From a virus (lineage: Duplodnaviria > Caudoviricetes), in the IMG/VR virus record IMGVR_UViG_3300042361_000498: DNA of 64,000 bases. One strand, written 5' to 3'. Under the pieces are notes generated by a model. That model saw only the letters and a list, made by a program, of their open reading frames with translations. It was not told the origin of the DNA and did no database searches. This document shows, in pieces, positions 1-39,231 of this stretch (its first letter is position 1; the number at the start of each line of letters is the position of its first letter). The translations under genes and the position numbers were made by a program.

Positions 1-368
1 CAGAGAGAAAAGCTGCAGAATTAGAAGCTGCTGCAAAACAAATAGAAGCGGCAGCATTAGCAGCTGCTAAAATGATTGAAGAAGAATTAAAAAGAAAAAA
101 AGAAGAAGCAAAGAAAGCAATTGAAGATGCAAAAAAAGAAGCAAAGGAGGCATTTCAAAAAGCACTAACCGCAAAAGAACAGGCGGAAGATATGATAGCA
201 AAATTACGTGGATTTAAAATACCCAGATTAAAAAAATTAAAACCCATACCAACAAAAGATTTACCAGCACCTCCTCAATATGCTAAATATATGGATGCTG
301 ATGCAAAACGGGAATACGCCGAAAATGCTAAAAGTTCGGCAACAAAAGGAGAACCACCAATAGTATAA
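1..368 (+). CDS. 5'-truncated coiled-coil protein with Pro/Lys-rich C-terminus (tail/baseplate region, function unknown)
   Basis: The frame of ORF 72..368 stays open back to position 3 (ERKAAELEAAAKQIEAAALAAAKM), so the gene starts before the window; A/E/K-rich heptads. Confidence 0.6.
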   Translation, partial: ERKAAELEAAAKQIEAAALAAAKMIEEELKRKKEEAKKAIEDAKKEAKEAFQKALTAKEQAEDMIAKLRGFKIPRLKKLKPIPTKDLPAPPQYAKYMDADAKREYAENAKSSATKGEPPIV

Positions 369-371
369 ATT

Positions 372-1436
372 ATGTCTTGGGAAATATTTAAACAAAATAT
401 TGTAAGAATTTCAAATAGACCAGGTAGTATACCTGATATAGATACTGTGGCTAGGGCTTATGCAGTTGAATACGATGCTGCAATTAAAAGAGGATTTGAT
501 ACTTTAAATAATATAGCAATTCAGCAAGGTGATGTTGCAACAATGGAAAGATTGTTTAAAATTGCTTTACAAAAAGGATTATCATCAACAGGTCCATATG
601 ATTTAGTTGGTGAAATGGGAAAGGGTGTAATTGCGTATTGGAGTGCACCAGGTGGGCCTGCTAGTATAGCTGATAATGCGGATGGTATTGATGCGGTGGA
701 GGCTGAAGCAATTCAAACCGATATTAATAGAGAATACCCAAAAACTCAATTAGAGTATGAAAGACAGTTTCCATCAAAAGAAGCCGCAATGGCAAATAAT
801 AGTAATGTTTCACCAAAAGAAGCATTAGATTCTGTAAACGATTTTAATAATGAAAAATCCCAAAGTAATGCTGATACTAAATTAGTTGGAAGGGGTGATA
901 CTGCATTATTTAATAAATGTGGAAATGGAATATGGCCTGCATTGGGAACTGCTCCAAATTTTGAAATAAGAAGTATAGAAAATGCTGACTCAGATTGTCC
1001 TAGAAAATGGTACAAAACAAATCAAGAATATCTAACAAAAAATTGTACTCAAATAATGTTTCCAACTGCCAAAGGTAGTTCTAAAATATTAGTTCATAAA
1101 AATTTGGCAGCAATTATAAAACCCGCATTAGAAGAAATAAAAGCAAAAGGATTGCAAAGATATATTGAAAATTGCGGAGGTGGGTTGGCTATTAGAAATG
1201 TAACTTGTGGTACTAGATTATCAAATCATAGTTGGGGAACTGCGATTGATATGAATACGGGAATATACCCATATGGTGTAAAATTTAAATCAGATGGAAT
1301 TTATAGTGGTAAGAAAAAACTTAGAGAACTTAATGAATTTGATAAAGGATTCCAACAAGTAGCAGCAATATTTAAATCAAAAGGAATGACATGGTTAAGT
1401 AATAATGACCCAATGCACGTTTCTATATATGAATAA
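372..1436 (+). CDS. Peptidoglycan hydrolase: helical N-terminal segment plus C-terminal M15 (VanY/Ply500-like) Zn peptidase
   Basis: SNHSWGTAIDMN (SxHxxGxAxD) and DPMH Zn-ligand motifs at the C-terminus. Confidence 0.85.
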   Translation: MSWEIFKQNIVRISNRPGSIPDIDTVARAYAVEYDAAIKRGFDTLNNIAIQQGDVATMERLFKIALQKGLSSTGPYDLVGEMGKGVIAYWSAPGGPASIADNADGIDAVEAEAIQTDINREYPKTQLEYERQFPSKEAAMANNSNVSPKEALDSVNDFNNEKSQSNADTKLVGRGDTALFNKCGNGIWPALGTAPNFEIRSIENADSDCPRKWYKTNQEYLTKNCTQIMFPTAKGSSKILVHKNLAAIIKPALEEIKAKGLQRYIENCGGGLAIRNVTCGTRLSNHSWGTAIDMNTGIYPYGVKFKSDGIYSGKKKLRELNEFDKGFQQVAAIFKSKGMTWLSNNDPMHVSIYE

Positions 1437-1446
1437 TTATTAAGAT

Positions 1447-2283
1447 ATGGGAGCTATAATGAGAAACTTTCCAATACCACTTATACCAGCACCAGGCTCA
1501 ACTGCCAATGTTGCTGTAATAAATAATGTGGTTTTAAGTCCGGGAGTTTGGGGACCACCACAACCATCGGTAGGAGCAAGACAGGGAGATACTTTATCCG
1601 AAGAGGAAAAAGCTGGTGCACAAGAAGATTTGGATGTTGCAAAAAAAGATTTGCAAGAATTTCAAAATGACCCAACACCCGAAGGACAGGCTAAAGCACA
1701 AACTGCAAGAGAACAAATAGCATATCAATCGGAAAGATTGGGAAGTGGTGAGAATGCATCTTCATCGGATGTATCAAATGAACCAAAGCAAGAGATTATA
1801 GCAGATTTGCCACCTGATATGGAAATAGGATTAAAAATAGTTCAATATGCTTTAAGAGATTTAGGAGTAACTGAAAATCCACTACCACCGGGAAAACCTG
1901 AAAATTCCGGTCCAAGAGTTTTACAAATGTTAAAAGGTGTTGGATTTAATACACCCGCATATTGGTGTGCTGCTGCGGTATCTGCTTGGTATAAGAGTGC
2001 TGGTGCAAAATCACCCAATAGTGCATCATGTGATGTTTGGATGAGTTGGGCAAAACGAAATGGATTGTTTAGTAGCAAACCTGCAATTGGAGCAGCTATT
2101 TTATATGGTAGTTCGGCAGATGCACATCACATAGGAATTGTTGAGGCAATAAGTGGGGATAGAGTAACTACAATAGAAGGTAATACTTCTGGTGGTGGTT
2201 TTAGTAGAAACGGAGTAGGTGTATTCCGTAAATCAGCAAGAATTGCAAAAGCAGTTGGATTTGTATTACCAATAAAAAAATAA
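1447..2283 (+). CDS. Peptidoglycan hydrolase with C-terminal CHAP amidase/peptidase domain
   Basis: AYWCAAAVSAW (catalytic Cys), AHHIGIVE (His), IEGNT motif. Confidence 0.85.
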   Translation: MGAIMRNFPIPLIPAPGSTANVAVINNVVLSPGVWGPPQPSVGARQGDTLSEEEKAGAQEDLDVAKKDLQEFQNDPTPEGQAKAQTAREQIAYQSERLGSGENASSSDVSNEPKQEIIADLPPDMEIGLKIVQYALRDLGVTENPLPPGKPENSGPRVLQMLKGVGFNTPAYWCAAAVSAWYKSAGAKSPNSASCDVWMSWAKRNGLFSSKPAIGAAILYGSSADAHHIGIVEAISGDRVTTIEGNTSGGGFSRNGVGVFRKSARIAKAVGFVLPIKK

Positions 2284-2287
2284 TAAA

Positions 2288-3220
2288 ATGTCAGCAGTTA
2301 GACCTACGGATAATACTGGAGTAATAGTTGATGAGTTCATTCGTTATGCAACTCAACATTTAACTACTGTAACCGGCGTTATATCAACAACATCTTTATA
2401 TCCACCTTTGGGTACACCCGGACCGGGTATTATAAATTGGACAGGTTATACAGTTCCCCCAGCAGCACCATCAATACCTATTGGTCAAGTTGATACATCT
2501 GCAATAGAAATGACACCTGAACAAGAAGCAATAGCTGAAAGAGCATCACAAAGGGGAGCTGATTTAAATTCTGCAACCGCAGCTGCACTATCTGGTGTGG
2601 AATATACAGGCGGTTCTTCTGGTGGAGGTGGTGGAGGTGGTAGTGATTCTGGCGGTGTAGTATCTTTATCCGCAGATAAATTGCCGGTTGATGGTGTTGA
2701 AAAAATACCTAATTACAAAACAAGTGTAAAAGTTCCACCCGAAATAGTTGTTGCTATGAGAAAATATGGAGTGGGTAGAAGTCCTTTGGAAAGAGCACAC
2801 TTTTTAGCACAATGTGCTCACGAAAGTGGAGGATTTATTTATAGAGAAGAATTGGCAAGTGGAGCTGCATATGAAGGTAGACGTGATTTGGGTAATACAC
2901 AACCTGGCGATGGTGTACGATATAAAGGTAGGGGATATATTCAATTAACGGGTAGAGCAAACTATACAAAATTTGGACCTGTTGCTGGTGGTGATTTTGT
3001 AGGAAATCCAAGAGTAGTTGCACAGCAATATTATGCTGATACCGCTTGTTTATTTTGGAAATCAAATAGTTTAGGTCCAAAATGTGTTAATTCATCGATT
3101 GATACTATTAAAGTTGTAACTAAAAGAATCAATGGTGGTTATAATGGATTGAACGATAGAGTAAGTAGATTTGCAGTTTATTGGAGAGAATTACAAAGAG
3201 ACCCGACACTTTGGGCATAA
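2288..3220 (+). CDS. Peptidoglycan hydrolase with C-terminal glycoside hydrolase family 19 (lysozyme/chitinase-like) domain
   Basis: AHFLAQCAHESGGF, YEGRRDLGNTQPGDGVRYKGRGYIQLTGRANY and TKRINGGYNGLNDR are typical of phage GH19. Confidence 0.9.
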   Translation: MSAVRPTDNTGVIVDEFIRYATQHLTTVTGVISTTSLYPPLGTPGPGIINWTGYTVPPAAPSIPIGQVDTSAIEMTPEQEAIAERASQRGADLNSATAAALSGVEYTGGSSGGGGGGGSDSGGVVSLSADKLPVDGVEKIPNYKTSVKVPPEIVVAMRKYGVGRSPLERAHFLAQCAHESGGFIYREELASGAAYEGRRDLGNTQPGDGVRYKGRGYIQLTGRANYTKFGPVAGGDFVGNPRVVAQQYYADTACLFWKSNSLGPKCVNSSIDTIKVVTKRINGGYNGLNDRVSRFAVYWRELQRDPTLWA

Positions 3221-3275: not shown

Positions 3276-3782
3276 ATGAATACGGATAAATTATTAAAAG
3301 CTATTCAAATTCTTATCAAAGAGGAGTTAAAACAACAACTCCCTGCTTTGATTAAAGAAGGAGTGAAAGCGGAAATGAAAAAGGTTTTAGCGGAAGGAAA
3401 TACTAAACCACAACCTAAAAAAGAAAGTGAAGGATTTTCAATGGCTAAAGCAATATTGGGGAATGATACTATTAAGGAATCGGTTGAAACTAAAGTAGTA
3501 GAAACTAAACAATTTAGTAAAAACCCAATTATTAATCAAATTTTAAATGAAACAAGAGGTGGTATCCCACAAGGTGATGGTGGTTTTAGAACAATGAATT
3601 TTGGACAAGGTGATATGGGGTCTGTTGTAGGTAGAACTGCAGTAGCTGATAAAATGGGATATGGTGATTTAGCTAGAGGACCTCAACCAAGTGGATTAGG
3701 TGTTCAAACTGGGGTGCCTGAATTGGATAAAGCATTGAACAGAGATTATTCAGAATTAGTAAAACGATTTAATAAAAAATAA
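3276..3782 (+). CDS. Hypothetical phage protein
   Basis: 168-aa ORF behind a late-type motif; N-terminus KLLKAIQILIKEE resembles those of the head-associated proteins. Confidence 0.7.
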   Translation: MNTDKLLKAIQILIKEELKQQLPALIKEGVKAEMKKVLAEGNTKPQPKKESEGFSMAKAILGNDTIKESVETKVVETKQFSKNPIINQILNETRGGIPQGDGGFRTMNFGQGDMGSVVGRTAVADKMGYGDLARGPQPSGLGVQTGVPELDKALNRDYSELVKRFNKK

Positions 3783-4204
3783 TGGCAGTATTATTAGGTC
3801 AAAGGATGGTTAAAGATACAATTGCATATAACGATTATGCTATTGGTATTACATTGCCATTACAAATAGGAAATAATGCATTTAATCAATCATTTAAAAC
3901 AATTGACCAAGTAAAAACAAATATTAAAAACCTTTTATTAACAAAAAGAAAAGAAAGAGTAATGCAACCGGAATTGGGTAGTGGCTTACAAGAATTACTT
4001 TTTGATTTTAATGATGACTTTTTAGCTGATGAAATAGAAGAAGTTATTACAAACAGTATGGAAAAGTGGTTGCCATACGTTACTATTGAAGAAATTGATG
4101 TTAGACAGACTGATGAATTTAAGGATACCAATCGTGTTGAAATTTCATTAACATTTAGTATAACAAATAATGTAGGTATGGAGACAGTAACCTTTACAGT
4201 ATAA
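3782..4204 (+). CDS. gp25: Baseplate wedge subunit, T4 gp25/GPW-like
   Basis: NIKNLLLTKRKERVMQPELGSGLQELLFD...WLPYV pattern of the GPW_gp25 family; directly upstream of the baseplate J/gp6-like gene. Confidence 0.85.
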   Translation: MAVLLGQRMVKDTIAYNDYAIGITLPLQIGNNAFNQSFKTIDQVKTNIKNLLLTKRKERVMQPELGSGLQELLFDFNDDFLADEIEEVITNSMEKWLPYVTIEEIDVRQTDEFKDTNRVEISLTFSITNNVGMETVTFTV

Positions 4205-4208
4205 AAAA

Positions 4209-6245
4209 ATGGCATTAACTACAATAAATAAGAATTTTAAAAACAAAGGAAAAGATATAAAATATCTAAATAAAGACTTTGCTGCATTTAGAGAAAACTT
4301 AATTGAATTTTCTAAAACATATTTTCCAAAAACATATTCTGATTTTAATGAAACATCACCTGGTATGATGTTTATTGAATTAGCATCGTATGTTGGTGAT
4401 TCATTATCTTATTATGTAGATGATACTTTAAAAGAATCATTAATGCCATACGCTGAAGATATTCAAAGTGTAATTGCATTATCTCAATTTTTGGGATATA
4501 AACCAAAAGTAACATCTCCAGCAATAACAAATGTATCGGTATATCAATTAATTCCATCAATTGGAAGTGGTGTTAATAACAAACCAGATGAAACATATTT
4601 TCTTAGAATAAAAGAAGGTATGCGATTACAATCTACTGAAAATGATATTTTATTTAGAACAACAGACGTAGTTGATTTTAATGATGAAAACAATAGAGAG
4701 ATTACAATTTACGAAAGAGATGTAAATACTGGAGAACCTACTTTTTATTTGGTTAAAAAATATGTACAAGCAATATCAGCTATCACATCGGAAAGAACAT
4801 TTACGTTTGGAGCATATCAACCATTTCAATCAATAACATTAGATGAAACGAACATTATTCAAATATATGATGTTAGGGATTCGAATGGAAACAAATATTA
4901 TGAAGTTCCATATTTGGGACAAGAAATGGTGTATATTGAACAACCAACAACAGAATCAAATGATGCTGAATTATATCAATTTAAAACAACAGTTCCATAT
5001 ATTCTTAAAACTATAAAAACACCAAGAAGATTTGTAGCAAAAGTAAATCAAAATAGTACAACTACATTACAATTTGGAGCAGGTGACCCATCCGCATCGG
5101 ATGAACAATTAATACCAAATCTTAAAAATGTAGGACTTGGTTTACCAAACTCAATTAGTAGATTGGAAGAATCATTTGACCCAACTAATTTTTTAAAAAC
5201 AAAAACGTATGGAACATCTCCATCAAACACAAGTATTATTGTTAAATATTTTGTAGGTGGTGGTATTAGTTCAAATATAGTTAAAGGTGATTTGACTAGA
5301 ATAGTTGGAATAGAATATGAAGATGATATTGATTCATTTACAAATGCACAAATAGCAACATATAATAGTATTAAAAATTCAGTAGCAGTTGATAACGAAA
5401 TACCCGCAACAGGTGGTAGAGATGGTGAAACTATTGAAGAGATTAGACAAAACGCATTGGCAAACTTTGGTGCACAAAATAGAGCAGTAACTGCAAAAGA
5501 TTATCAAGTTAGAGCATTATCATTACCATCAAAATATGGTGGTGTTGCTAAAGCATTTGCAACTGCAGATGGTACATTGGATAATAATTCACCTGCTTCT
5601 ATATTAGCATCACCAAATCATTTACAAGAGTTTACGGATTTGGTTATGAGTTTTGTTAATAAGCCTGATTCAGAAGAACCAACTATACAATCCGTTAAGC
5701 AAGATATTACAACATATTTAATTGGTAAAGATTCCAACTTAAAGGAAAAAAATAATCCGTTTGCAATTAACCTCTATTTGTTGGGATATGATTTAAACGG
5801 AAATCTTACAAATCTTAATAAAGCAGTAAAAGAAAATCTTAAAACTTATATGAACGAATACCGAATGTTGACAGATGGTGTTAATATAAGTGATGGGTAT
5901 ATTATAAATATTGGTGTTGAGTTTGATATTATCATATATAACAACTACAACAAAAGTGAAGTACTTACTAAATGTATTACTGAATTGAAAGATTATTTTA
6001 ATATAGATAATTGGACATTCAATCAAACAATTAATTTAAGCGAAGTAGAATTACTAATAGCAAACGTTGAAGGTGTATCATCAGTACCAATGATGAAAAT
6101 AACAAATAAATGTGGTGGAAATTATTCACCAAATTCATATAACGTAGATGCTGCAACTAAAGATAAAATTGTATATCCATCGTTAGACCCATCTATTTTT
6201 GAAATTAAGTTTCCGGATTCAGACATTAAAGGACGAGTAAGATAA
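4209..6245 (+). CDS. Baseplate wedge protein, gp6/baseplate-J-like
   Basis: YLNKDF...DFNETSPGMMFIELASYVGD N-terminus; GGRDGETIEEIRQNA and QNRAVTAKDY motifs. Confidence 0.85.
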   Translation: MALTTINKNFKNKGKDIKYLNKDFAAFRENLIEFSKTYFPKTYSDFNETSPGMMFIELASYVGDSLSYYVDDTLKESLMPYAEDIQSVIALSQFLGYKPKVTSPAITNVSVYQLIPSIGSGVNNKPDETYFLRIKEGMRLQSTENDILFRTTDVVDFNDENNREITIYERDVNTGEPTFYLVKKYVQAISAITSERTFTFGAYQPFQSITLDETNIIQIYDVRDSNGNKYYEVPYLGQEMVYIEQPTTESNDAELYQFKTTVPYILKTIKTPRRFVAKVNQNSTTTLQFGAGDPSASDEQLIPNLKNVGLGLPNSISRLEESFDPTNFLKTKTYGTSPSNTSIIVKYFVGGGISSNIVKGDLTRIVGIEYEDDIDSFTNAQIATYNSIKNSVAVDNEIPATGGRDGETIEEIRQNALANFGAQNRAVTAKDYQVRALSLPSKYGGVAKAFATADGTLDNNSPASILASPNHLQEFTDLVMSFVNKPDSEEPTIQSVKQDITTYLIGKDSNLKEKNNPFAINLYLLGYDLNGNLTNLNKAVKENLKTYMNEYRMLTDGVNISDGYIINIGVEFDIIIYNNYNKSEVLTKCITELKDYFNIDNWTFNQTINLSEVELLIANVEGVSSVPMMKITNKCGGNYSPNSYNVDAATKDKIVYPSLDPSIFEIKFPDSDIKGRVR

Positions 6246-18553: not shown

Positions 18554-18961
18554 ATGAATTGGTTATATGAGGGAAATATTGTTACGGAGGAAGACGTGCC
18601 TGTTGGTGCGGTGGGATTCGTATATAAAATAATTCACACTCCAACTGGTAGATACTATATAGGTAAGAAATCACTTACATCAACTAGAAAATTAGCACCA
18701 CTCAAAGGACAAAAAAGAAAAAGAACAGTAACCAAATCTTCGGATTGGGAAAAATACTATTCTTCAAACGATTGGATTAAAGAGCAAGTAAAGGAAGGTA
18801 AAGCTGACGAGTTCAGTAGAGAAATCATCCAATATTGTTTCTCTAAGAAATCATTAACATATTACGAAATCTATTGGCAGTTTCATTATAATGTACTTGC
18901 CGATGATAATGCAATAAACGAAAACCTAATGGGTAAATTCTATCGTAGGGATTTACTTTAA
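18554..18961 (+). CDS. GIY-YIG nuclease (T4 EndoII/Seg-like, catalytic domain only)
   Basis: GFVY...RYYIGKK, SDWEKYYSS, LTYYE, and the conserved Asn in NENLMG. Confidence 0.8.
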   Translation: MNWLYEGNIVTEEDVPVGAVGFVYKIIHTPTGRYYIGKKSLTSTRKLAPLKGQKRKRTVTKSSDWEKYYSSNDWIKEQVKEGKADEFSREIIQYCFSKKSLTYYEIYWQFHYNVLADDNAINENLMGKFYRRDLL

Positions 18962-19224: not shown

Positions 19225-20163
19225 ATGCTATCTGGTAAAAATAAAATTGTAGTTATATCGATTTTAGACACAACGCTTGGTGTTGGTTCATCTCTTAAAG
19301 GAAATGAGCAACAACACCATTGTCCATTTTGCCATCATCACAAAAAGAAACTACAAGTCAATTTAGATACACAGCAATGGCATTGTTGGGTGTGTAACTC
19401 CAAAGGTCGTTCCATCTCATCTCTTCTTCGTAAACTAAATGTTGATAGGAGGGATTTGGATAGATTACATAAAATCTATGGAGATGAACCAGCATACTCA
19501 CCAACGGAAGAGTATGTAATCAAACTACAATTACCAAAGGAGTTCAAACAATTACATTTTAAACCATCGGGTCTATTTAATCCAATTTACACCAAAGCAA
19601 TCCATTACCTAAAACAAAGAGGTATAAAGGATTCGGAGATTGTAAAATATAACATTGGATATTGTGAAGATGGATTATATGGGGGTAGGGTTATTATACC
19701 ATCCTATGATGAGAGTGGTGAGTTAAACTATTTTATTGCTCGTTCTTTTTATGAGGATGAAAAGATGAAATACAAAAACCCACCTGTCAATAGAGATGTT
19801 ATTGTATTTGAGAATCAAATAAATTGGAATGAACCTATCACATTAGTTGAAGGAGCATTTGATGCATTTTCCGTAAAGAGAAATGTAATTCCTTTATTGG
19901 GTAAATTCCTATTAAGTAAATTGAAGAATAAGATTTTTGAAAAAGGTGTAAAAGAAATCACCATAATGTTAGATTCGGATGCTATTGAAGATTCCACAAA
20001 GCATTCAGAATGGTTTATTAAAAACGGAATTAAAGTTAAGAATATAATACCTAACGGCAAAGATGCCGGAGAGTTGGGATACGAAAGAGTAAACGAACTT
20101 ATTAAAACTACTACTGAAACTGGTTGGGATGATTTAGTCCTTGCCAAATTAAACAACGTATGA
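19225..20163 (+). CDS. DNA primase (DnaG/gp61-like; Zn finger plus TOPRIM)
   Basis: HCPFCHH...WHCWVC zinc knuckle, GRVIIP, LVEGAFDA and MLDSDA TOPRIM motifs. Confidence 0.9.
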   Translation: MLSGKNKIVVISILDTTLGVGSSLKGNEQQHHCPFCHHHKKKLQVNLDTQQWHCWVCNSKGRSISSLLRKLNVDRRDLDRLHKIYGDEPAYSPTEEYVIKLQLPKEFKQLHFKPSGLFNPIYTKAIHYLKQRGIKDSEIVKYNIGYCEDGLYGGRVIIPSYDESGELNYFIARSFYEDEKMKYKNPPVNRDVIVFENQINWNEPITLVEGAFDAFSVKRNVIPLLGKFLLSKLKNKIFEKGVKEITIMLDSDAIEDSTKHSEWFIKNGIKVKNIIPNGKDAGELGYERVNELIKTTTETGWDDLVLAKLNNV

Positions 20164-23100
20164 GTATAAAAAGAATATATCACATTGCAGATGTTCATAT
20201 CCGTAATGTAAAAAGACACAACGAATATAGACAAGTATTTGAAAAAATGTTTGAGGAGATTCGTAAGAGGGGAACTGAAGATTCACTCATTTATTTAGCT
20301 GGAGATATTGCCCATGCTAAATTGGAAATGAGTCCTGAATTATTAAAAGAAATTAGTTGGTTATTTACGGAGTGTTCTAAGCATTGTGAAACTATCCTTA
20401 TTGCGGGAAATCACGATTGTAATATGAACAACTCCGATAGATTGGATGTTCTGACTCCAATCGTAGATGCATTGAATCTACCAAACTTTCATTACCTTAG
20501 AGATACGCAAGTATATTCAATTGGAGGAATTGATTTTTCAGTATTCTCTATTTTTGATAAAAGAGATAATTGGATTACAGCAGATAAACTATTTGGTAAC
20601 AAAAAGATTGCACTATTTCACGGACCATTAGATACATCCACAACCGATGTAGGATATGTGGTAAGTAGTAGACACTTTAAGCCGGAGATATTTGATGGGT
20701 TTGATTTGGCTCTATTAGGTGATATTCATAAGAGACAAGAAATCATATCGGAAGCTGGATGTAAGATTGTATATGCTGGTTCATTGGTACAACAAAACTT
20801 TGGAGAGAGTTTAGATAAGCACGGATTTGTAGTTTGGGATATGGATACTCTAAACTATGAAGAGGTTGATATCCAAAACGAATACGGATACTACACTATG
20901 AATGTGGATAATGGTATTGTGCCGGATGTAACGGATATGCCATTAAAACCTCGATTGAGAGTTAAGTTATCCAACACCGATACTGCGGATACTAAAAGAG
21001 TGGTAACGGAAATTAAGATGAAGTACAACGTAGATGACTTCACAATCATTCGGACAGACTCATTCTCAAAGAGTAAGACGGGTAATAGAAGTAGTAAGTT
21101 GGACTTCGAAGATATATCGGATATTAACCACCAGAACTCTCTCATATCGGAGTATGTTAAACGAATGATGCCATATACTACCGAAGAGGATTTGAAGGGC
21201 TTAGAAACGATAAATAGAGATGTAAATAGTAGAATCGTAACGGAAGATATTCATAGAAACATTCATTGGAAACCTGTAAGATTTGAATTCAGTAATATGT
21301 TTTCGTATGGGGAGGATAATGTAATTAACTTTGATAAGGTAGGTGGATTGATGGGATTGTTTGCACCAAACGCAGCTGGTAAATCCTCACTATTTGATGC
21401 AATATCATTCTGCCTTTTTGATAAGTGTAGTAGAGCATTCAAAGCAGGAAACATTCTAAACAATCGTAAGGATACCTTTAGTTGTAAGTTGGAGATTGAG
21501 ATTGATGGGGTAAGGTACTTTATTCAAAGGGAAGCAAAGACAGTGAGTAAAGGTAAGAGTGTTAAGGTAGATGTACAATTTTGGAAAGAGAATGGTGATG
21601 GTACGGAAATTCTAAATGGAACGGAACGTAGAGATACCAATAACATCATTGAACAATATGTTGGTAGGTATGAAGATTTTGTACTAACTGCCTTATCATT
21701 GCAAGGAAACAACGCCCTATTCATTGATAAATCTCAAAGTGAAAGAAAGGAATTACTTTCTCAATTTATGGGATTAACTATCTTTGATAAATTATATGAA
21801 ACGGCTAGTGAAGATATTAAAGAGGTAACAACACTTATTAGAAATTTTAAGAGGACCGATTTTACTTCCGAATTAGCAGAAAAACAAAGTGAACTCAAAG
21901 AAAAGAAAGAAGAGTTTGATACATTGGATACTGAATCTAAAGAGTTGGAAACTGAAAAGAGTGAGTTGGAAAAAGAAATTATCCAGTTATCACAACAATT
22001 GACTCCAATGGATGGTAATTTAAACATTGATAGTTTGAATACCAAAAAATCAAATTTAGACCAAAACATTGAGAAGCAGATTGAAAAGATGACAGATAAG
22101 GCATCTAAGTTGGAAGAGTATGAATCTGCATTAAAACAAATTGGAGAGGGTATTGAAGAAAGTAAATTGTATGATGATACTGCAATTGATTATATGTACA
22201 CAAAATTTACAACTCTACAATCCACATACACATCATCACTACACTCTATTGATAAGTTACACATATCATTGGATGCCAACAAAGAAAAGTTATCTCATTT
22301 AGAAAAGCATGAGTATGACCCTAATTGTAACTTTTGTATGAACAACGTATTCGTAAAGGATGCAAAGGAAACTGAAAAGATAGTTGGGGAGCAGTTGATT
22401 GTATTGGAAGAATTGGAAAGAGGTTCAAAAACAATTACTCAAAATCTACAATCATTAAAGGATGTTAAATCTCAATATGATTTGTGGATTTCTTTAACCG
22501 AAAAACAAAAGAAAGGTAACACATTATGCGATAGTACCAAATTGGAGTTAGAGCAGATGGAAACTCAACTACAACTATTCCAACATCAATTGGAAGGAGT
22601 TGAGGGGGATATCCAACGTTACAATGATAATTTGGAAACCATTTCTAAAAACAAAGAGATACAAACTAAAATATCAGAACTAACAACATCTAAAAAAGAA
22701 ATTGAGGGTAAGATAGAAAGTGCTAAAAAGAAACTTTTAAAGTTATCATCCGATACCGGTTCTATTAACACATTTATCAAAGATATGAAAGCTAAGATGG
22801 GGGAGGTTAAGGATTTGGAAACAAAGAATCAATTGTACACATTTTATTTAGATGCGGTTAAGAGAGATGGAATTCCATACGAATTGATTACTAAGGCTCT
22901 GCCTGTAATCGAAGAGGAAATTAACAACATATTAGGACAGGTTGTTGATTTTGGAATCGTAATGGATACGGATGGTAAGAACATCAACGCTAAGATAGTT
23001 TACGATGACCAGGAATGGGCATTGGAAATGTGTAGTGGTATGGAGAAGTTTGTTAGTGGATTGGCAATTAGAGTTGCACTTATTAACATATGTAACTTAC

Positions 23101-23303
23101 CTCGTCCAAACTTCTTAGTAATCGATGAGGGATTTGGTACGTTAGATAGTGATAACCTGTCATCCCTATTTATGATGATGCAATATCTCAAAACTCAATT
23201 TGATTTCATTTGGATGATTTCGCATTTAGAACAAATGAGAGATATTGTAGATGGTTTAATTGAAATCAAAAAAGATAATGGGTTTAGTAAGATTAATTTT
23301 TAA
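20160..23303 (+). CDS. Fused Mre11/SbcD nuclease - Rad50/SbcC ATPase (gp47-gp46-like)
   Basis: Metallophosphoesterase motifs HIADVH, GDIAH, GNHD, FHG, GDIH; Walker A APNAAGKSS; CNFC zinc hook in coiled coil; signature CSGME; Walker B VIDEGFGTLD; H-loop ISH. Confidence 0.92.
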   Translation: MSIKRIYHIADVHIRNVKRHNEYRQVFEKMFEEIRKRGTEDSLIYLAGDIAHAKLEMSPELLKEISWLFTECSKHCETILIAGNHDCNMNNSDRLDVLTPIVDALNLPNFHYLRDTQVYSIGGIDFSVFSIFDKRDNWITADKLFGNKKIALFHGPLDTSTTDVGYVVSSRHFKPEIFDGFDLALLGDIHKRQEIISEAGCKIVYAGSLVQQNFGESLDKHGFVVWDMDTLNYEEVDIQNEYGYYTMNVDNGIVPDVTDMPLKPRLRVKLSNTDTADTKRVVTEIKMKYNVDDFTIIRTDSFSKSKTGNRSSKLDFEDISDINHQNSLISEYVKRMMPYTTEEDLKGLETINRDVNSRIVTEDIHRNIHWKPVRFEFSNMFSYGEDNVINFDKVGGLMGLFAPNAAGKSSLFDAISFCLFDKCSRAFKAGNILNNRKDTFSCKLEIEIDGVRYFIQREAKTVSKGKSVKVDVQFWKENGDGTEILNGTERRDTNNIIEQYVGRYEDFVLTALSLQGNNALFIDKSQSERKELLSQFMGLTIFDKLYETASEDIKEVTTLIRNFKRTDFTSELAEKQSELKEKKEEFDTLDTESKELETEKSELEKEIIQLSQQLTPMDGNLNIDSLNTKKSNLDQNIEKQIEKMTDKASKLEEYESALKQIGEGIEESKLYDDTAIDYMYTKFTTLQSTYTSSLHSIDKLHISLDANKEKLSHLEKHEYDPNCNFCMNNVFVKDAKETEKIVGEQLIVLEELERGSKTITQNLQSLKDVKSQYDLWISLTEKQKKGNTLCDSTKLELEQMETQLQLFQHQLEGVEGDIQRYNDNLETISKNKEIQTKISELTTSKKEIEGKIESAKKKLLKLSSDTGSINTFIKDMKAKMGEVKDLETKNQLYTFYLDAVKRDGIPYELITKALPVIEEEINNILGQVVDFGIVMDTDGKNINAKIVYDDQEWALEMCSGMEKFVSGLAIRVALINICNLPRPNFLVIDEGFGTLDSDNLSSLFMMMQYLKTQFDFIWMISHLEQMRDIVDGLIEIKKDNGFSKINF

Positions 23304-31832: not shown

Positions 31833-34013
31833 ATGAATAATACACGTAAAAAATTGTTATACGTTGCTCCTCACTTATCTACTGGAGGACAACCACAATA
31901 TCTATTAAAGCAAGTTGAACATTTCTACAAAGATTACCAAATAAAGGTAGTTGAAGTTAGAAATAGTGGGGGTGATGCATTTGTGGTTCAAAAAAACAAA
32001 ATCAAAGCATTAGTTCCCGTACACACTTTATATGAGGATAAATCGGATATACTAAAAGTTATAGATGATTTTGAACCTGATATTATTCATTTTCAGGAAA
32101 TACCACAACACGATTTAGATTACGATATATTGGATAAAATATGGGATGATAATCGTAAGTATTTTATTATAGCAACAACACACGGCTCATTTACAGACCC
32201 CGATGCAATTATTTACCAACCCGATAGATATGTGTTAGTATCTGAATGGAGTAGAAGAAAGTTTGAACATTTGGGTGTTGATACTATGTTGTGGGAATAT
32301 CCAATTGAGGATATTAAATACGATAAAGATAAAGCAAAGGAGGTATTAGGATTTGAAAAAGATTGGAAGCACGTTCTTAATGTAGGATTGTTTGCTCCCG
32401 GCAAAAACCAAGCTGAAATATTTGAGGTAGCTAGATTGTTGGAAAAATATAAAATAAAATTTCACTTTGTAGGAAACCAAGCTGGAAACTTTGAGGATTA
32501 TTGGAAACCTTTGATGGATGATAAACCATCTAATTGTGTAGTGTGGGGGGAACGAAATGATGCTGATAAGTTTTACGCAGCAGCTGATTTCTTTTATTTC
32601 TCAACACTTTGGGAATTGAATCCATTATCAATTAAAGAAGCACTATCATATAAACTACCATGTATCTTTAGAAGGTTACATACTTATTTGGATACCTATG
32701 ATAATAATCCATTGGTAACTTATATTGATGGGGATGTACCTGCAACTAAAAAAATTATATTAGAACAATTAAAACCTGATTTTGGTGAAATAGAAGGGTG
32801 GTTCTACTATAATCATATGTATAAAGATATAGTTCAAGCTGGATATGATGGGTGTGAATTTGTAGAAGTTGGTGTGTGGAAGGGCAAATCTACCAATTAT
32901 ATGATTCAGAAAATAAAAGAGTCTGGTAAACGTATTCACTTTACAACTGTTGATACGTTTAAAGGAACTGAATCGGAACCTTGGCATAACCCAGTGGTTC
33001 AACATTATAATGGAGATTTATTTCCTGAATTTATTGATAACACATTATTATCAAACAACTATGGGTTATTTGATATTATAAAAGATAATTCCGTAAATGC
33101 AGCAAATCAATTTAAGAATAATAGTATTGATTATATAATGATTGATGCCGGGCATACTTACGAAGATGTTACAACTGATTTAAAAACTTGGTATAAAAAA
33201 GTAAAACCGGGTGGTATTATTAGTGGTGATGATTATACAATAACCGATGGTGTAACCAATGCTGCAAACGATTTCTTTTATGGGCAATTTGATAAAACGT
33301 ATTATAGGGCATTCTTACGAAAGAAACCTAGAATTCAAATCAAACATTTATTAACATCTCCATTTAACGCAAGAGAATATATTAGTATTGCTTCCATAAA
33401 ACAATTACAAAAATATGGAATTGATTACACTCAAAGTGTAACTGAAGTGTATAAAGATATTCCACCTACCGAACATTGTAGGAGACCCGAACATATAAGT
33501 AAAGATAATAAGCCGGGTGAGTTATGGCCTGGCGCTGGATTGGGTTGGATAACTGGTGGACATTATGGGTGTTATTTAGCACATAAGAACGCAGTTGATA
33601 GCTTGGATGATAAATACGATTACACTCTTATATTCGAAGCAGATGCGTTCATTTACACCGGTTTGGAAGAGTTTGTAGATATAGTTCACAAAGCGTGTTT
33701 CATTTCGGAAAGAGACGATGTGTACTATATTGGATTGGCAAATAACCCATCTCGTTCAAAAGAAAAGGTAGATGAATTATTTTCACAAACCGCACATAAC
33801 CAAGACCTTGCACATGCTTATTTGGTTAGAAACAAAGATAAACAATGGTGGAAAGATAGGATAGCAGATTGTGAATGGGATGTTGGTGATTTATGGTATA
33901 ATCACGTATTTGCTAAATATCCAATGAAAAGATATACTACAAACAAAATGTATAGTAATCAGACGGAGGGATTCTCATTATTAGACCAAACAATTAAAAC
34001 TTGGAACGTATGA
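31833..34013 (+). CDS. Three-domain enzyme: GT4 glycosyltransferase + class I SAM methyltransferase (Methyltransf_24-like) + GT25-like glycosyltransferase
   Basis: HLSTGGQP and FSTLWELNPLSIKEAL (GT-B); VEVGVWKGKS and IMIDAGHTY...KPGGIISGDDY (methyltransferase); GHYGCYLAH...LIFEADA (GT25-like). Confidence 0.8.
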   Translation: MNNTRKKLLYVAPHLSTGGQPQYLLKQVEHFYKDYQIKVVEVRNSGGDAFVVQKNKIKALVPVHTLYEDKSDILKVIDDFEPDIIHFQEIPQHDLDYDILDKIWDDNRKYFIIATTHGSFTDPDAIIYQPDRYVLVSEWSRRKFEHLGVDTMLWEYPIEDIKYDKDKAKEVLGFEKDWKHVLNVGLFAPGKNQAEIFEVARLLEKYKIKFHFVGNQAGNFEDYWKPLMDDKPSNCVVWGERNDADKFYAAADFFYFSTLWELNPLSIKEALSYKLPCIFRRLHTYLDTYDNNPLVTYIDGDVPATKKIILEQLKPDFGEIEGWFYYNHMYKDIVQAGYDGCEFVEVGVWKGKSTNYMIQKIKESGKRIHFTTVDTFKGTESEPWHNPVVQHYNGDLFPEFIDNTLLSNNYGLFDIIKDNSVNAANQFKNNSIDYIMIDAGHTYEDVTTDLKTWYKKVKPGGIISGDDYTITDGVTNAANDFFYGQFDKTYYRAFLRKKPRIQIKHLLTSPFNAREYISIASIKQLQKYGIDYTQSVTEVYKDIPPTEHCRRPEHISKDNKPGELWPGAGLGWITGGHYGCYLAHKNAVDSLDDKYDYTLIFEADAFIYTGLEEFVDIVHKACFISERDDVYYIGLANNPSRSKEKVDELFSQTAHNQDLAHAYLVRNKDKQWWKDRIADCEWDVGDLWYNHVFAKYPMKRYTTNKMYSNQTEGFSLLDQTIKTWNV

Positions 34014-35616: not shown

Positions 35617-38600
35617 ATGAGTGAATTATCTAACTTTTTAGTAGAAAGCATATTAGGGGAATCTGCCGAAATGGAAAACGTAATAGTTGTCTATTCTGGT
35701 AGATTTCAACCTTTTCATAAGGGGCACTTCGCCACATACAAACAACTTGTATCAAAATTCGGAAAAGATGATGTTTACATAGCAACATCCAATAAAACCG
35801 ATAACCAAAAATCTCCATTTGATTTCAGAGAGAAAAAAACCATAATGACTAAAATGTTTGGTATCCCATCAAACAAAATAGTTCAGGTTAAAAATCCATA
35901 TCAACCTACGGAAATTGTAAGTTCATACGATGCAGCTAAGACTGGTTTAATAGTTGTAGTTGGTGAGAAAGATGAACAACGTTTGGGTGGAAATTATTTT
36001 ACTCCATATAAAGGTAAGGTAGAGATGGGATATTTGGATAAGGGATACGTTTATGCTTCACCTGCTCAATCAAATCCTATAAGTGGAACTGATGTTCGTA
36101 ATTGGTTAAGTAAAGGAACTGATGACGAAAAGAAAGAGGGATTCTTAAAAGCATATCCAAAATTTGATGCAACTGTTTTCAAATTTATTACTCTAAAATT
36201 AGCAAAACTTTCTGAAGATATTAACTTAGATGTGAATGTAGGTGATACTCTTTTGATGGGCAAGTTTAAGAACAAAAGAGTAGTTGTAAAAAATATTGAT
36301 AAAGATGAGCATGGTATGCCAACTATCAATGGTAAGAAAGCAACTACATTTAGAATCCCACCAAAATCAAACCTATTTAATGAATCATCTAACTTTGGTA
36401 TGGCTGGTGCTGAACCAGGTGAACCAAACCCAAACTACGTTGCCGATGGACAAGCTCGTATATTAGATAAAGGGAAACCTGAAGGTTGGTTTAGACAAGG
36501 TGGATACACCCAAATAGATAAACCAAAGGGTGATTGGATGCGTGGTAAGGGTAGAAAAAAAGAATCGGAATCAACATTTAGAAAAGTAACATATTCACTT
36601 AAAAACTATAAAGAATCTGAACTAAATCCAGCGCAAGACCCATACCATACTGAAGATTGGGTAGAAACTGAACCAAAGAAAAAAATTAAAAAACCAAAAA
36701 GATTTTGGGAAGATACTGAAATGGATGTAAAAATATCATTAATATCTGAAGAAGAATTAAACGAAATTGCTGAAGATTATATAACCGCATTGGATGAAAT
36801 GGGATTGGGTGGAGGAGCCGGTGTTGGTTTATCTTTACCGGGTGGATACATAAATGGTGCTCCGAAAGCAGATGATGTTGCCAAAGTAAGTAAGAAGTTG
36901 AAGAATAAAGGTATGAGTGGGTATGAGGAGGTTGATGAAGAAACTATTTTAGAATATAGTGGAAATGGTGCATTCTACAACGATGGTAATGCAACAAGTG
37001 GTACAATGTGGAATGCTGATTGGGATGATTACAATAATGCAGAATACTATTTAGATAATTTAGAGGGTTGGTGTTTTTATCACGAAGACCCATCTGAATA
37101 TGAAAAGAAAAAATCAGTAGACCAAAAGTTACCAACGGATGACCAAAACGATGGAAAAACTGATAAGTACAATCGTATATTAAAATACAACTTTCCTAAA
37201 CCAGAAGATTTAACGGAGATGGCTAAATCTGATTTAGACCAGGTTGAGAAATATGCTGACCAACAATTATCTCCCGAAGATATTGAATTGGGAAAGGAAA
37301 CTGACCATTTTTTCCAAAGATTAAATGACCCTCGTAATGGTAAACAAATATCAGCAGCCGAATTAACTGGTTTCTTTAAAAGATTGGCAAAAAATAAAAA
37401 GAAATTTTTAGATTTTGTAAAACAATATAAGGAGTTTGTAGTTAAAGATAAGAGAACAAACATCAATATTCCATTTATGACAGTAGCAAACAAATTGATT
37501 GCTAAAACCATAATGAGAAAGGATGATTTCAAATCTTCAACACCAGTTTATGTATCCGAACAATCTTTGAGTGAAATTACAAAAGGTATCTACGGAAAGA
37601 AAATAAAAATCAATGGTGAAATAATTGAATTACAAGTTGAGTTAGTTGGGGCTGATAATAAAACAAATGAATTTATTACAAAAATAGTTCATATTGATAA
37701 AAAATATCAAAACAAATATCCAATTGGTTCTACACTAAAAGTACCGGCACGAATATTTAGATTACCCGGCGGTGGTTGGTACAAAGTTAAAAATAAAGCA
37801 TTTGAAGCAATAACTTCAAAAAATCATAAAGCAGATGGAACTGCTGACCACAATTTTACACAACATCATAAATCATCATCATATACACCTGATTATGGTT
37901 ATCCTGCTGAATTAGATACAATTGATTTTGATGATGATAGAGAAATAGAACCTGGTCATCAAACGGATACAAAAGATAAACAAAACAAAGGATACGAACC
38001 TGTTAAAAAAGTAAACGAAAGTAAAGATTTAATAATTGAAGGTGGGGCTTATGGACACATGCACCATCCGTTTGATATTGAAATGAACCTTACGTTCTCT
38101 GACCTAAAGAACATCGTTAAGAAAGCACTTACTGGAGATTTGGATGTAGCAAGAGAAAAAACCGATGGACAAGCATTGGCAATTAGTTGGGTAAATGGAA
38201 GATTAGTTGCTGCTAGAAACAAATCACATCTAAAGAATAAAGGTGAGGGTGCTATGACAATAGGACAGGTAGCTGATAAGTTTGCTGGTAGAGGCGGACT
38301 AACCGATGCTTACAACTTTGCTATGAGTGATTTATCAAAAGCAATTGGTTCATTATCCGAACCACAAAGAAAAAAAGTATTTAATGATGGAAGTTCGTTT
38401 ATGAATTTGGAAGTAATATATCCAACATCGGTAAACGTAATTCCATACAACCAACCACTATTAGTATTTCATGGTACATTTGATTATGATATCGATGGTA
38501 ATATAAGTGGTGAGAATCAACAATCAGCACGAATATTAGCTGGTATGATTAAGCAAGTAAATGCAAGTGTTCAATCCAAATACACAATACAAGGACCACC

Positions 38601-39231
38601 AATGCAGAAATTACCAAAGAGTGAGAATTTAACAAAACTACAATCAAAGTATATGAGTATGATATCTAAACTACAAAGTGAGTTTGGGTTATCTGATTCT
38701 GATGGGGTAGCTGATTATCATCAAGCGTGGTGGAGTAACTTTGTGGATAAAAACGCAAAAGGATTAGATGCACAAGAAAAGATTGGTTTGGTTAAGAGAT
38801 GGGCATTTGGAGATAAAGGATTCAGAATAGCAACAATACAAAACCCTAAATTAAGAAGTTGGGCAGACAATACTGAAAAGAAAGACCAAGCTAAAATAGC
38901 AAAAGATAACCTAATGAAATTTGAAGAAATATTCTTAGGTGTTGGTGCAGATGTACTTTCATTTATGGAATCAGTACTTACCGCAAATCCAACGGAAGCA
39001 ACTAAACAAATGGTAGCTAGATTACATAAGACGGTTGATGATGTTAGAAAGTTGGGAGACCCTAAGAAGTTGGATAAACTTAAATTAGAATTACAAAGAT
39101 TACAGGCATTAGGTGGATTTGAAAAGATAGTTCCAAATGAAGGTATCGTATTTGTATATAACGGAAACACTTACAAATTAACAGGAGCATTCGCTCCACT
39201 TAATCAAATATTAGGTCTTTTTTACGAATAA
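35617..39231 (+). CDS. Multidomain protein: N-terminal HxGH cytidyltransferase-like nucleotidyltransferase, internal modules, C-terminal DUF6267-like (KxDG ligase-like) domain
   Basis: GRFQPFHKGH and ISGTDVR; EGGAYGHMHHPFD and REKTDG; many hydrophobic-X-E junctions. Confidence 0.7.
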   Translation: MSELSNFLVESILGESAEMENVIVVYSGRFQPFHKGHFATYKQLVSKFGKDDVYIATSNKTDNQKSPFDFREKKTIMTKMFGIPSNKIVQVKNPYQPTEIVSSYDAAKTGLIVVVGEKDEQRLGGNYFTPYKGKVEMGYLDKGYVYASPAQSNPISGTDVRNWLSKGTDDEKKEGFLKAYPKFDATVFKFITLKLAKLSEDINLDVNVGDTLLMGKFKNKRVVVKNIDKDEHGMPTINGKKATTFRIPPKSNLFNESSNFGMAGAEPGEPNPNYVADGQARILDKGKPEGWFRQGGYTQIDKPKGDWMRGKGRKKESESTFRKVTYSLKNYKESELNPAQDPYHTEDWVETEPKKKIKKPKRFWEDTEMDVKISLISEEELNEIAEDYITALDEMGLGGGAGVGLSLPGGYINGAPKADDVAKVSKKLKNKGMSGYEEVDEETILEYSGNGAFYNDGNATSGTMWNADWDDYNNAEYYLDNLEGWCFYHEDPSEYEKKKSVDQKLPTDDQNDGKTDKYNRILKYNFPKPEDLTEMAKSDLDQVEKYADQQLSPEDIELGKETDHFFQRLNDPRNGKQISAAELTGFFKRLAKNKKKFLDFVKQYKEFVVKDKRTNINIPFMTVANKLIAKTIMRKDDFKSSTPVYVSEQSLSEITKGIYGKKIKINGEIIELQVELVGADNKTNEFITKIVHIDKKYQNKYPIGSTLKVPARIFRLPGGGWYKVKNKAFEAITSKNHKADGTADHNFTQHHKSSSYTPDYGYPAELDTIDFDDDREIEPGHQTDTKDKQNKGYEPVKKVNESKDLIIEGGAYGHMHHPFDIEMNLTFSDLKNIVKKALTGDLDVAREKTDGQALAISWVNGRLVAARNKSHLKNKGEGAMTIGQVADKFAGRGGLTDAYNFAMSDLSKAIGSLSEPQRKKVFNDGSSFMNLEVIYPTSVNVIPYNQPLLVFHGTFDYDIDGNISGENQQSARILAGMIKQVNASVQSKYTIQGPPMQKLPKSENLTKLQSKYMSMISKLQSEFGLSDSDGVADYHQAWWSNFVDKNAKGLDAQEKIGLVKRWAFGDKGFRIATIQNPKLRSWADNTEKKDQAKIAKDNLMKFEEIFLGVGADVLSFMESVLTANPTEATKQMVARLHKTVDDVRKLGDPKKLDKLKLELQRLQALGGFEKIVPNEGIVFVYNGNTYKLTGAFAPLNQILGLFYE

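Follow-up and report, generated by a model that had tools for sequence, protein, structure and literature searches.

The stretch of DNA analysed here (64,000 nucleotides of the IMG/VR virus record IMGVR_UViG_3300042361_000498; hereafter, the window) carries three consecutive open reading frames (ORFs), each of which encodes a short noncatalytic N-terminal piece, a low-complexity linker and a predicted cell wall hydrolase. The full source record is 71.8 kb long and was judged to be approximately 36% complete; the exact proteins of the three ORFs are also found on a 279,674-bp contig, and the virus is therefore a jumbo myophage. All three genes lie on the plus strand and start with ATG: ORF1 (positions 372-1436, frame 0) encodes 354 amino acids (aa), ORF2 (1447-2283, frame 1) encodes 278 aa, and ORF3 (2288-3220, frame 2) encodes 310 aa. 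The AT-rich spacers between them measure 10 nucleotides (nt; ORF1/ORF2) and 4 nt (ORF2/ORF3). We consider it probable that these genes are the parts of one split domain, here termed the carrier, and that their N-terminal pieces co-fold into a virion-borne unit bearing three enzymes.

The pieces are referred to as p1, p2 and p3, and the linker and enzyme behind each as its cargo. p1 (372-644; ORF1 aa 1-91) corresponds to carrier residues 1-92, the four-helix part of the scaffold, and is followed by cargo 1 (645-1436), a linker with a Peptidase_M15_4 domain (aa 280-351; Pfam E = 9.5e-8). p2 (1447-1569; ORF2 aa 1-41) consists of an extra Met and then carrier residues 93-132, that is, a Pro-rich loop and one long β-strand; cargo 2 (1570-2283) is an acidic linker with a CHAP domain (aa 171-246; E = 4.8e-7). 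p3 (2288-2473; ORF3 aa 1-62) begins with Met-Ser, continues with carrier residues 131-190 and comprises one helix and a β-hairpin; cargo 3 (2474-3220) is a Gly/Ser-rich linker with a glycoside hydrolase family 19 (GH19) domain, which is recognised both by Pfam (Glyco_hydro_19, E = 2e-7) and by PHROG (phrog_181 endolysin, E = 1.8e-40). All three Pfam matches pass the Pfam cut-offs, confirming the order of modules, linkers and M15, CHAP and GH19 enzymes that the first-pass annotation of the window had described, and PHROG labels all three catalytic domains as endolysin. Inspection of the sequences revealed the M15 motifs in ORF1 (HxxxxxxD and a C-terminal His) and the CHAP motifs in ORF2 (the Cys of YWCAA and the His of HHIGIV). 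The linker ahead of every enzyme domain is about 90 to 110 aa long and rich in A/E/G/S/N/D. By their predicted domains, all three products are peptidoglycan hydrolases, as is required of tail lysins.

No Shine-Dalgarno-like motif precedes the three starts (340-372, 1434-1447 and 2281-2288), and the spacers there are purely A/T-rich. The G+C content is 30 to 35%, and the faint blastn matches include Flavobacterium phages. The missing Shine-Dalgarno motif and the low G+C content hint at a host with initiation independent of that motif, e.g., a member of the Bacteroidota.

Contiguous homologues of the N-terminal pieces

It had been proposed at first pass that the three pieces are dissimilar to one another and, when joined in order, read as one protein. 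Both parts of this proposal held. In a search among the three sequences, the best pairwise match covered 22 aa at an E value of 0.04; internal repeats among p1, p2 and p3 are ruled out by this lack of mutual similarity. For the comparison with relatives, profiles of natural contiguous proteins were used as queries, rather than the joined 190-aa chain of the window. The profile A3, built from 56 contiguous homologues with split forms excluded, tiles the three ORFs in order: its positions 1-92 match ORF1 aa 1-91 (108 bits), positions 93-132 match ORF2 aa 2-41 (39 bits), and positions 131-190 match ORF3 aa 3-60 (73 bits). Homology in p2 and p3 thus starts one or two residues past the added Met, as had been noted. 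The ORFs that flank the three lysin genes score approximately 0 bits against A3, and the tiled pieces are the sole matches in the 71.8-kb source record, which holds no intact copy. All of the invariant and near-invariant residues of the contiguous family are retained in the window pieces. As befits the fragments of a split gene, therefore, the pieces have contiguous homologues (e.g., P0052 and P0059, both 186 aa) and tile them without overlap.

When P0052 was modelled with AlphaFold2 on alignment A3, it formed a single compact α/β domain with a mean predicted local distance difference test score (pLDDT) of 95.8 and a predicted template modelling score of 0.89. In this model, p1 supplies four helices (residues 2-14, 23-39, 55-71 and 79-91), p3 a fifth (139-153), and the p2 strand (111-122) lies beside the two p3 strands (157-166 and 173-182) in a shared β-sheet. 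Both breaks of the window (after residues ~92 and ~131) fall in coil or loop regions. Modelled without p3, the p1p2 segment reached a pLDDT of 70, and p2 was unstructured. Comparison of these two models suggests that p2 and p3 each need the other as well as p1, and hence that the splits run through one domain rather than between domains. The idea put forward at first pass, that one ancestral domain was divided into three, is thus supported by the contiguous homologues and by the single-domain fold; it needs refinement in that the division was probably stepwise, a two-gene form being widespread (see below).

The carrier itself has no characterised relative in the collections searched. It has no Pfam or PHROG family, its 73 homologues in a set of 5.8 billion proteins are all without a name, and a search of the ESM Atlas returned hypothetical viral clusters only. 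A Foldseek search of the PDB with the carrier model gave nothing at E ≤ 0.001, a wide VIA-align search gave a best Z of 5.0 to a generic match, and a sequence-profile search of the PDB gave no match. The relatives in BFVD are all uncharacterised proteins of uncultured phages (e.g., A0A6J5MBZ8, TM score 0.92), and fold searches with the p1p2-only model found generic helical bundles only (Z ≤ 7.4). Neither the three ORFs nor the carrier has a Gp5_OB or Gp5_C match in Pfam; spike proteins were likewise missing from the fold-search lists, an absence that alone does not exclude that family. On these models and searches, the carrier is an uncharacterised phage family whose predicted fold lacks a solved relative.

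Forms of the carrier among relatives

A p1p2 profile, run against 1.84 billion representatives, matched 273 clusters, and in all of these the match begins at residue 1; the p3 profile was then applied to the best 150. All three pieces are held in one chain in 73 of these 150 representatives, which bears out the first-pass suggestion that contiguous homologues exist in related freshwater phages: many single ORFs span all three pieces, and the pieces are not confined to independent proteins. In 25 representatives the p1p2p3 chain stands alone (about 183 to 203 aa), terminating at a W-x-G-Y-x-V motif that is also the end of p3, and in 48 it has a C-terminal extension. The identified extensions were CHAP (13 cases), GH19 (4), VanY (3) and M23 (2), with GH24, M15_4, M15_3, C39_2 and Extensin-like_C as further types. 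Another 48 representatives are p1p2-cargo proteins; in each case where the gene behind it was read, such a protein proved to be the first of a two-gene form. Where the cargo was identifiable, it was always a peptidoglycan hydrolase (CHAP, GH19, VanY, M23, GH24, M15_3/4 or SleB-like).

The remaining architecture of interest is an in-frame insert between p2 and p3, seen in 6 of the 150. A 689-aa single-chain protein of this kind is present on four contigs in the same genomic slot as the carrier. At L086 4001-6070 (P0044; also P0060 and P0064), p1p2 is followed by an insert of about 260 aa, p3 and a second C-terminal domain; the insert (YNLRKMLDDAGY) is without a Pfam family. In a divergent subfamily (P0138 and P0150, and also P0131 and P0149), a long Lys/Glu-rich coiled-coil insert separates p2 from p3.

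A scan of viral contigs with p1 yielded 187 relatives, of which 80 loci were analysed. In 79 of the 80, p1 is fused to p2 (junction AYW-x-GA-x-(L/M)-N-x-FPIP) and p3 starts the next ORF, giving a first gene of p1p2, linker and variable enzyme and a second of p3 with its own linker and enzyme. Among these 80 loci, the break that the window has between p1 and p2 was found in one contig only (L001; 92% DNA identity to the window). L001 lacks the bases corresponding to window positions 666-1432, i.e., the M15 cassette, and only 13 residues of the same linker remain behind its p1; the corresponding site is L001 5222-5238. The M15 cassette is therefore a presence/absence polymorphism between the two, and since L001 keeps the stub of the M15 linker, its state is probably due to a later deletion, the cargo being dispensable and the piece not. 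The 104-aa p1-only protein of the L001 type forms a 90% cluster of 16 members from many contigs, the 354-aa form one of 32. Similarly, the second gene is reduced to p3 alone (69 aa, L038 type) in six loci. Wherever a piece has no cargo, the locus still encodes the other two pieces as well.

The enzymes interchange among positions (GH19, M15_4, VanY, CHAP, GH24, M15_3, a SleB-like hydrolase and several unassigned domains). In L033, one linker-M15 cassette occurs after p2 and again after p3 (genes 15-1310 and 1325-2395) with 90% amino-acid identity. The same was seen in L035, L058-L061 and L080, where, as in L033, the copies within a locus are 71 to 90% identical. Homology between the duplicated cassettes begins at a conserved Trp, the last residue of p2 in one copy and of p3 in the other, and at the sequence level these duplications are evidence of copying between attachment points. 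The ORF1 linker of the window is homologous to the post-p2 linker of L033.

The tight packing of three ORFs in frames 0, 1 and 2, with gaps of only 10 and 4 nt, together with the existence of natural single chains in which p1p2, an insert, p3 and cargo are joined, could also be taken to mean that the window genes are expressed as one polyprotein by programmed frameshifting or read-through, in the manner of the 689-aa relatives. We regard this as very improbable. Every ORF closes with a stop codon, beyond which come AT-rich spacer and then a conserved ATG. Spacer length ranges from 2 to 18 nt among the 80 loci, the reading frames of the two genes bear no constant relation to each other, and a Met opens gene 2 in every case. 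We noticed no slippery motif, although no formal search for one was made.

Evolution of the split

The p1p2 tree (151 rows, 131 columns, unrooted) has contiguous forms filling its deep, long-branched half and two-gene forms dominating the other. The window pairs with L001 at full support, and this pair is nested among two-gene forms. Well-supported branches require at least four changes of the two-gene state, and one two-gene lineage (L085, checked in the DNA) lies inside the contiguous half. The p2|p3 break thus occurs in at least two separately placed lineages, and the p1|p2 break occurs only in a single small clade. Judging from the tree, the likely order is from one gene to two (in more than one lineage or via recombination) and then to three.

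How the last step took place may be read in part from the ORFs. ORF1 looks like a p1p2-linker-M15 gene that lacks p2, a resemblance drawn from the homology of its linker to a post-p2 linker, and ORF2 looks like a p1p2-linker-CHAP gene that lacks p1. One possibility is that a cassette of linker, enzyme, stop, spacer and ATG was inserted at a loop. Alternatively, a tandem duplication followed by complementary deletions is possible, and would lead to the same end state; the duplicated cassettes of L033 fit this second route. At the end of every piece stands an aromatic residue, with a Pro-rich stretch behind it, and these piece ends may offer microhomology for either route. No endonuclease domain was found by Pfam or PHROG between the pieces, where the intervening DNA consists of linker, hydrolase and a spacer of 4 to 10 nt.

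Between the window and L001, the scaffold pieces differ at 29 synonymous and 18 nonsynonymous sites, giving a ratio of nonsynonymous to synonymous substitution rates (dN/dS) of 0.17; by this measure, the pieces have been under purifying selection since the three-way split. This is hard to reconcile with the notion that the split is an assembly or sequencing artefact, or that the genes are decaying pseudogenes. Some p1-only proteins in the databases do look frameshifted or truncated (P0047, P0062 and P0081). However, exact copies of ORF1, ORF2 and ORF3 were found on 37, 39 and 29 contigs, respectively, from several sources, the 90% clusters of the three ORFs have 32 to 78 members, and the independent contig L001 has both breaks. 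The window ORFs, moreover, are full length with intact catalytic motifs. We give the artefact explanation almost no credence.

Do the pieces reassemble?

Reassembly of the pieces by fragment complementation had been suggested at first pass. The prior for this was already high before any complex was predicted. We then ran a complex prediction on the three window pieces with matched alignments and with p3 as the scored partner, and obtained a score of 0.55, compared with 0.06 for the best control. The prediction runs agreed in at least 87% of contacts, with a partner pLDDT of at least 70. Of 80 solved complexes, 58 reached the pass mark, as did 2 of 110 mismatched pairs; scores of 0.60 or lower were given by only 7 of those 80 solved complexes and by both passing mismatches, and the use of our own alignments and of three chains makes this calibration only a rough one. 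A memorised structure is unlikely to explain the score, given that no like complex has been solved. The multimer prediction thus lends the suggestion weak support. Taking together the topology of the fold, the conserved core residues, the dN/dS of 0.17 and the complex prediction, we infer that physical reassembly of the three pieces is likely.

In such an assembly, the N-terminal segments would co-fold after translation into the ancestral domain of about 186 residues, with p1 giving the four helices, p2 the one long strand, and p3 the fifth helix and the hairpin that pairs with the p2 strand. The resulting heterotrimer would present three enzymes directed at different bonds of the cell wall: an M15 metallopeptidase, a CHAP amidase/peptidase and a GH19 glycosidase. 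The carrier would offer three points for the attachment of cargo, namely, its C terminus and two loops on its surface, which follow residues ~92 and ~131. Cassettes of linker and enzyme would have entered these loops, some in frame but most bringing a stop codon and a new start, and additions of the latter kind would have turned one gene into two and then, in the window lineage, into three.

It may be instead that the pieces no longer come together: each may anchor its enzyme separately, to its own partner in the tail or baseplate, or p1 and p2 may be dispensable relics. Pieces that stand alone do exist (p1 with its 13-aa stub, 104 aa, in L001, and p3, 69 aa, in L038), and the complex prediction gave a weak pass. 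Against this, p2 (41 aa) is in our models a single strand beside the p3 hairpin and is unstructured without p3, the core residues are all kept and the dN/dS is low across the pieces, and those pieces that have no cargo co-occur with the other two in the same locus. We consider independent anchoring to be improbable, and co-folding of the three pieces remains the explanation that we prefer.

Gene order and a likely place in the virion

The genes around the carrier are those of a baseplate block. Downstream on the plus strand lie a conserved 168-aa gene (3276-3782), a gp25-like baseplate wedge gene (3782-4204; Pfam GPW_gp25, E = 1.5e-11; phrog_261) and a gp6/Baseplate_J-like wedge gene (4209-6245; phrog_6 and phrog_219, E about 1e-17); the proximity to gp25 and gp6 genes pointed out at first pass is thus confirmed by Pfam and PHROG. 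The 168-aa gene always comes after the scaffold gene or genes, as seen in the synteny of L016, L081, L082 and L086, and no family or lead for its product was found in Pfam, PHROG or the Atlas. The gp25-like and gp6-like genes follow 60 to 1000 bp downstream, in the same order in L016, L081 and L086. Just upstream of p1, the window begins with the C-terminal end of a Lys/Glu/Ala-rich coiled-coil protein (3-368, plus strand; 274 aa in L001), the gene for which is found in some relatives and missing in others and sits between the carrier and a conserved protein of 409 to 416 aa. The latter is encoded at L001 2857-4095, with homologues at L081 5482-6726 and L086 2764-3999, and a version of 411 to 414 aa directly precedes the scaffold gene in L081, L026, L048 and L086. 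Every form of the carrier, be it the 186-aa gene (L081/L082), the 689-aa form (L086), the two-gene forms or the window, occupies the same slot, with the 409- to 416-aa protein upstream and an ORF of about 170 aa, gp25 and gp6 downstream.

This gp25/gp6 synteny places the three genes in a tail/baseplate block, as is typical of tail lysins. Given that the carrier is always in such a block, it is most likely a virion-borne unit that breaches the cell wall at infection, and the conserved gene order makes it likely that the carrier is a part of the virion at the tail tip or baseplate. In the Atlas, the nearest named clusters to the 412-aa upstream protein carry Gp5_OB, Gp5_C and Phage_base_V (score 0.91; a language-model lead), and this protein may be a central spike that lacks a lysozyme domain. 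Were that so, the neighbouring carrier would supply the wall-degrading activity on long tethers.

An alternative is that the carrier is the wall-binding or oligomerisation module of a cytoplasmic three-enzyme endolysin, which acts from within at lysis. Modular Gram-negative endolysins carry N-terminal binding domains, and PlyC is encoded by two genes. The order of noncatalytic module, linker and C-terminal hydrolase is indeed a modular endolysin layout, PHROG gives all three catalytic domains an endolysin label, and no further lysin turned up among the 30 larger window ORFs that were scanned; with only ~36% of the genome in hand, however, the true endolysin may lie elsewhere. The carrier, for its part, is neither restricted to proteins with catalytic domains nor found in a lysis cassette: the 25 enzyme-free representatives occupy the same gp25/gp6 slot, and the window genes are co-oriented and tightly packed in the baseplate block with no holin or spanin nearby. 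The module also matches no known wall-binding family in Pfam or PHROG. We therefore think a cytoplasmic endolysin unlikely, if the least improbable of the alternatives considered here.

The reading of the three genes as a split, co-folding and virion-borne carrier is supported by sequence, the census, synteny and predicted structure. The analysis shows how the pieces tile the contiguous homologues, that the fold is predicted as one domain, that synteny is conserved, that cassettes move and that selection is purifying; reassembly as a physical complex, a place in the virion, the activity of the enzymes and their stoichiometry are inferred. Several points weigh against it. In tblastn searches with p1, p3 and two contiguous proteins, no carrier was found in cultured phages. 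As the carrier has no annotated relative in Pfam, PHROG, the PDB or BFVD, its likely baseplate location is read from gene order, and the gp5-like identity of the 412-aa protein was unconfirmed by searches of Pfam, PHROG and the PDB with the single sequence and with a profile. Furthermore, the complex prediction was a weak pass, a second, intact carrier is possible elsewhere in a genome of which the source record holds about 36%, and an unrooted tree of 131 columns leaves the order of events likely but short of proof.

Comparison with known systems

The tail lysins known to date have recognised structural proteins, such as the tape measure, spike, Tal or knob, as their fusion partners. The genes described here resemble them in being hydrolase genes embedded in a tail/baseplate module and subject to modular domain shuffling, and differ in that the enzymes are fused to fragments of one split domain. 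A comparable embedding is seen in the cultured Microcystis phage Mel-JY01 (PP395634.1; L084 4906-5937), in which a 343-aa GH19 protein annotated as "putative chitinase", with a low-complexity N-terminal half, is encoded in the slot of the carrier, two genes upstream of the gp25-like gene; the phage also has a related gp6. The carrier domain is absent from this putative chitinase.

In phage T4, the tail-associated lysozyme of gp5, part of the gp27-gp5*-gp5C cell-puncturing device, lies in the middle of the spike protein, which is cleaved at Ser351/Ala352 into two chains that remain associated in the virion (PMC3004832). The likeness to the carrier is twofold: the P0044-type single chains carry a domain inserted between scaffold segments, and a wall-degrading enzyme is borne on long linkers by what is, for the carrier, a probable tail structural protein. 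However, the T4 break is proteolytic and falls between domains, whereas the carrier break is genetic and runs through one small domain, in two places and with up to three enzymes. The carrier has no detected similarity to the gp5 OB-fold or β-helix, and a separate gp5-like candidate without a lysozyme domain (a lead only) is encoded upstream of it.

Another parallel is the NrdA protein of Aeromonas phage Aeh1, the product of an essential gene, which is split into NrdA-a and NrdA-b by mobE and reassembles noncovalently into a working protein (PMC3045599). As in the window, a gene has been cut by inserted DNA and has contiguous homologues in relatives. There, the inserted DNA is a free-standing gene for a homing endonuclease, and the fragments of Aeh1 NrdA assemble by means of short new tails; in the carrier, by contrast, the insert is a linker and enzyme fused to the upstream fragment, so that the split adds function, and the split is three-way within 186 aa. 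The intervening DNA of the window thus lacks the mark of a selfish element. The spike adaptors of type VI secretion systems and contractile tails (PAAR and VgrG extensions), to which the first-pass annotation had likened the unit, are also small tip modules with exchangeable enzymes. This likeness stands as a functional analogy only, since the searches made detected no similarity of sequence or fold between the carrier and such adaptors, and hence no homology.

A literature search on tail-lysin gene fission returned nothing relevant, and we found no description of one small domain split into three genes, each with an enzyme. To our knowledge, nature offers very few cases of fission within one small domain in which all fragments are kept and each carries an added function. 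In the carrier family such fission is common, comes in grades (from one gene to three, with insert forms besides) and is still polymorphic in wild phage populations, and the forms of the carrier provide a natural series for studying the evolution of split-protein complementation. The finding combines known kinds of things (tail lysins and genes in pieces) on an uncharacterised carrier family, one that appears to serve environmental myophages of fresh and marine waters as a general carrier of peptidoglycan hydrolases. Whether the whole amounts to a novel tail-tip or baseplate carrier, in which a natural three-part complementation gathers three hydrolases at one virion site and cassettes are freely exchanged, is a question on which we find the balance even. 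In practical terms, the system may furnish a three-way self-assembling tag for enzyme display and a catalogue of natural linker-lysin cassettes. It also carries a warning for annotation: what looks like "three endolysins in a row" may belong to a single structural unit.

Other genes of the window

The remaining window genes include those for tail-fibre, terminase, portal, protease and major-head proteins. A 135-aa ORF beside the primase gene (18554-18961) has PHROG matches to a homing endonuclease and to phrog_447 "NAD synthetase"; it is possibly a mobile endonuclease of the replication block, away from the split lysins. At 20160-23303, a 1047-aa ORF is SbcD-like over aa 2-346 and SbcC-like over aa 317-1046 by PHROG, and appears to be a fused SbcCD nuclease. 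Finally, a 726-aa glycosyltransferase and methyltransferase-like protein (31833-34013) and a 1204-aa protein with an N-terminal cytidylyltransferase-like region (35617-39231) may have roles in the modification of surfaces or of DNA.

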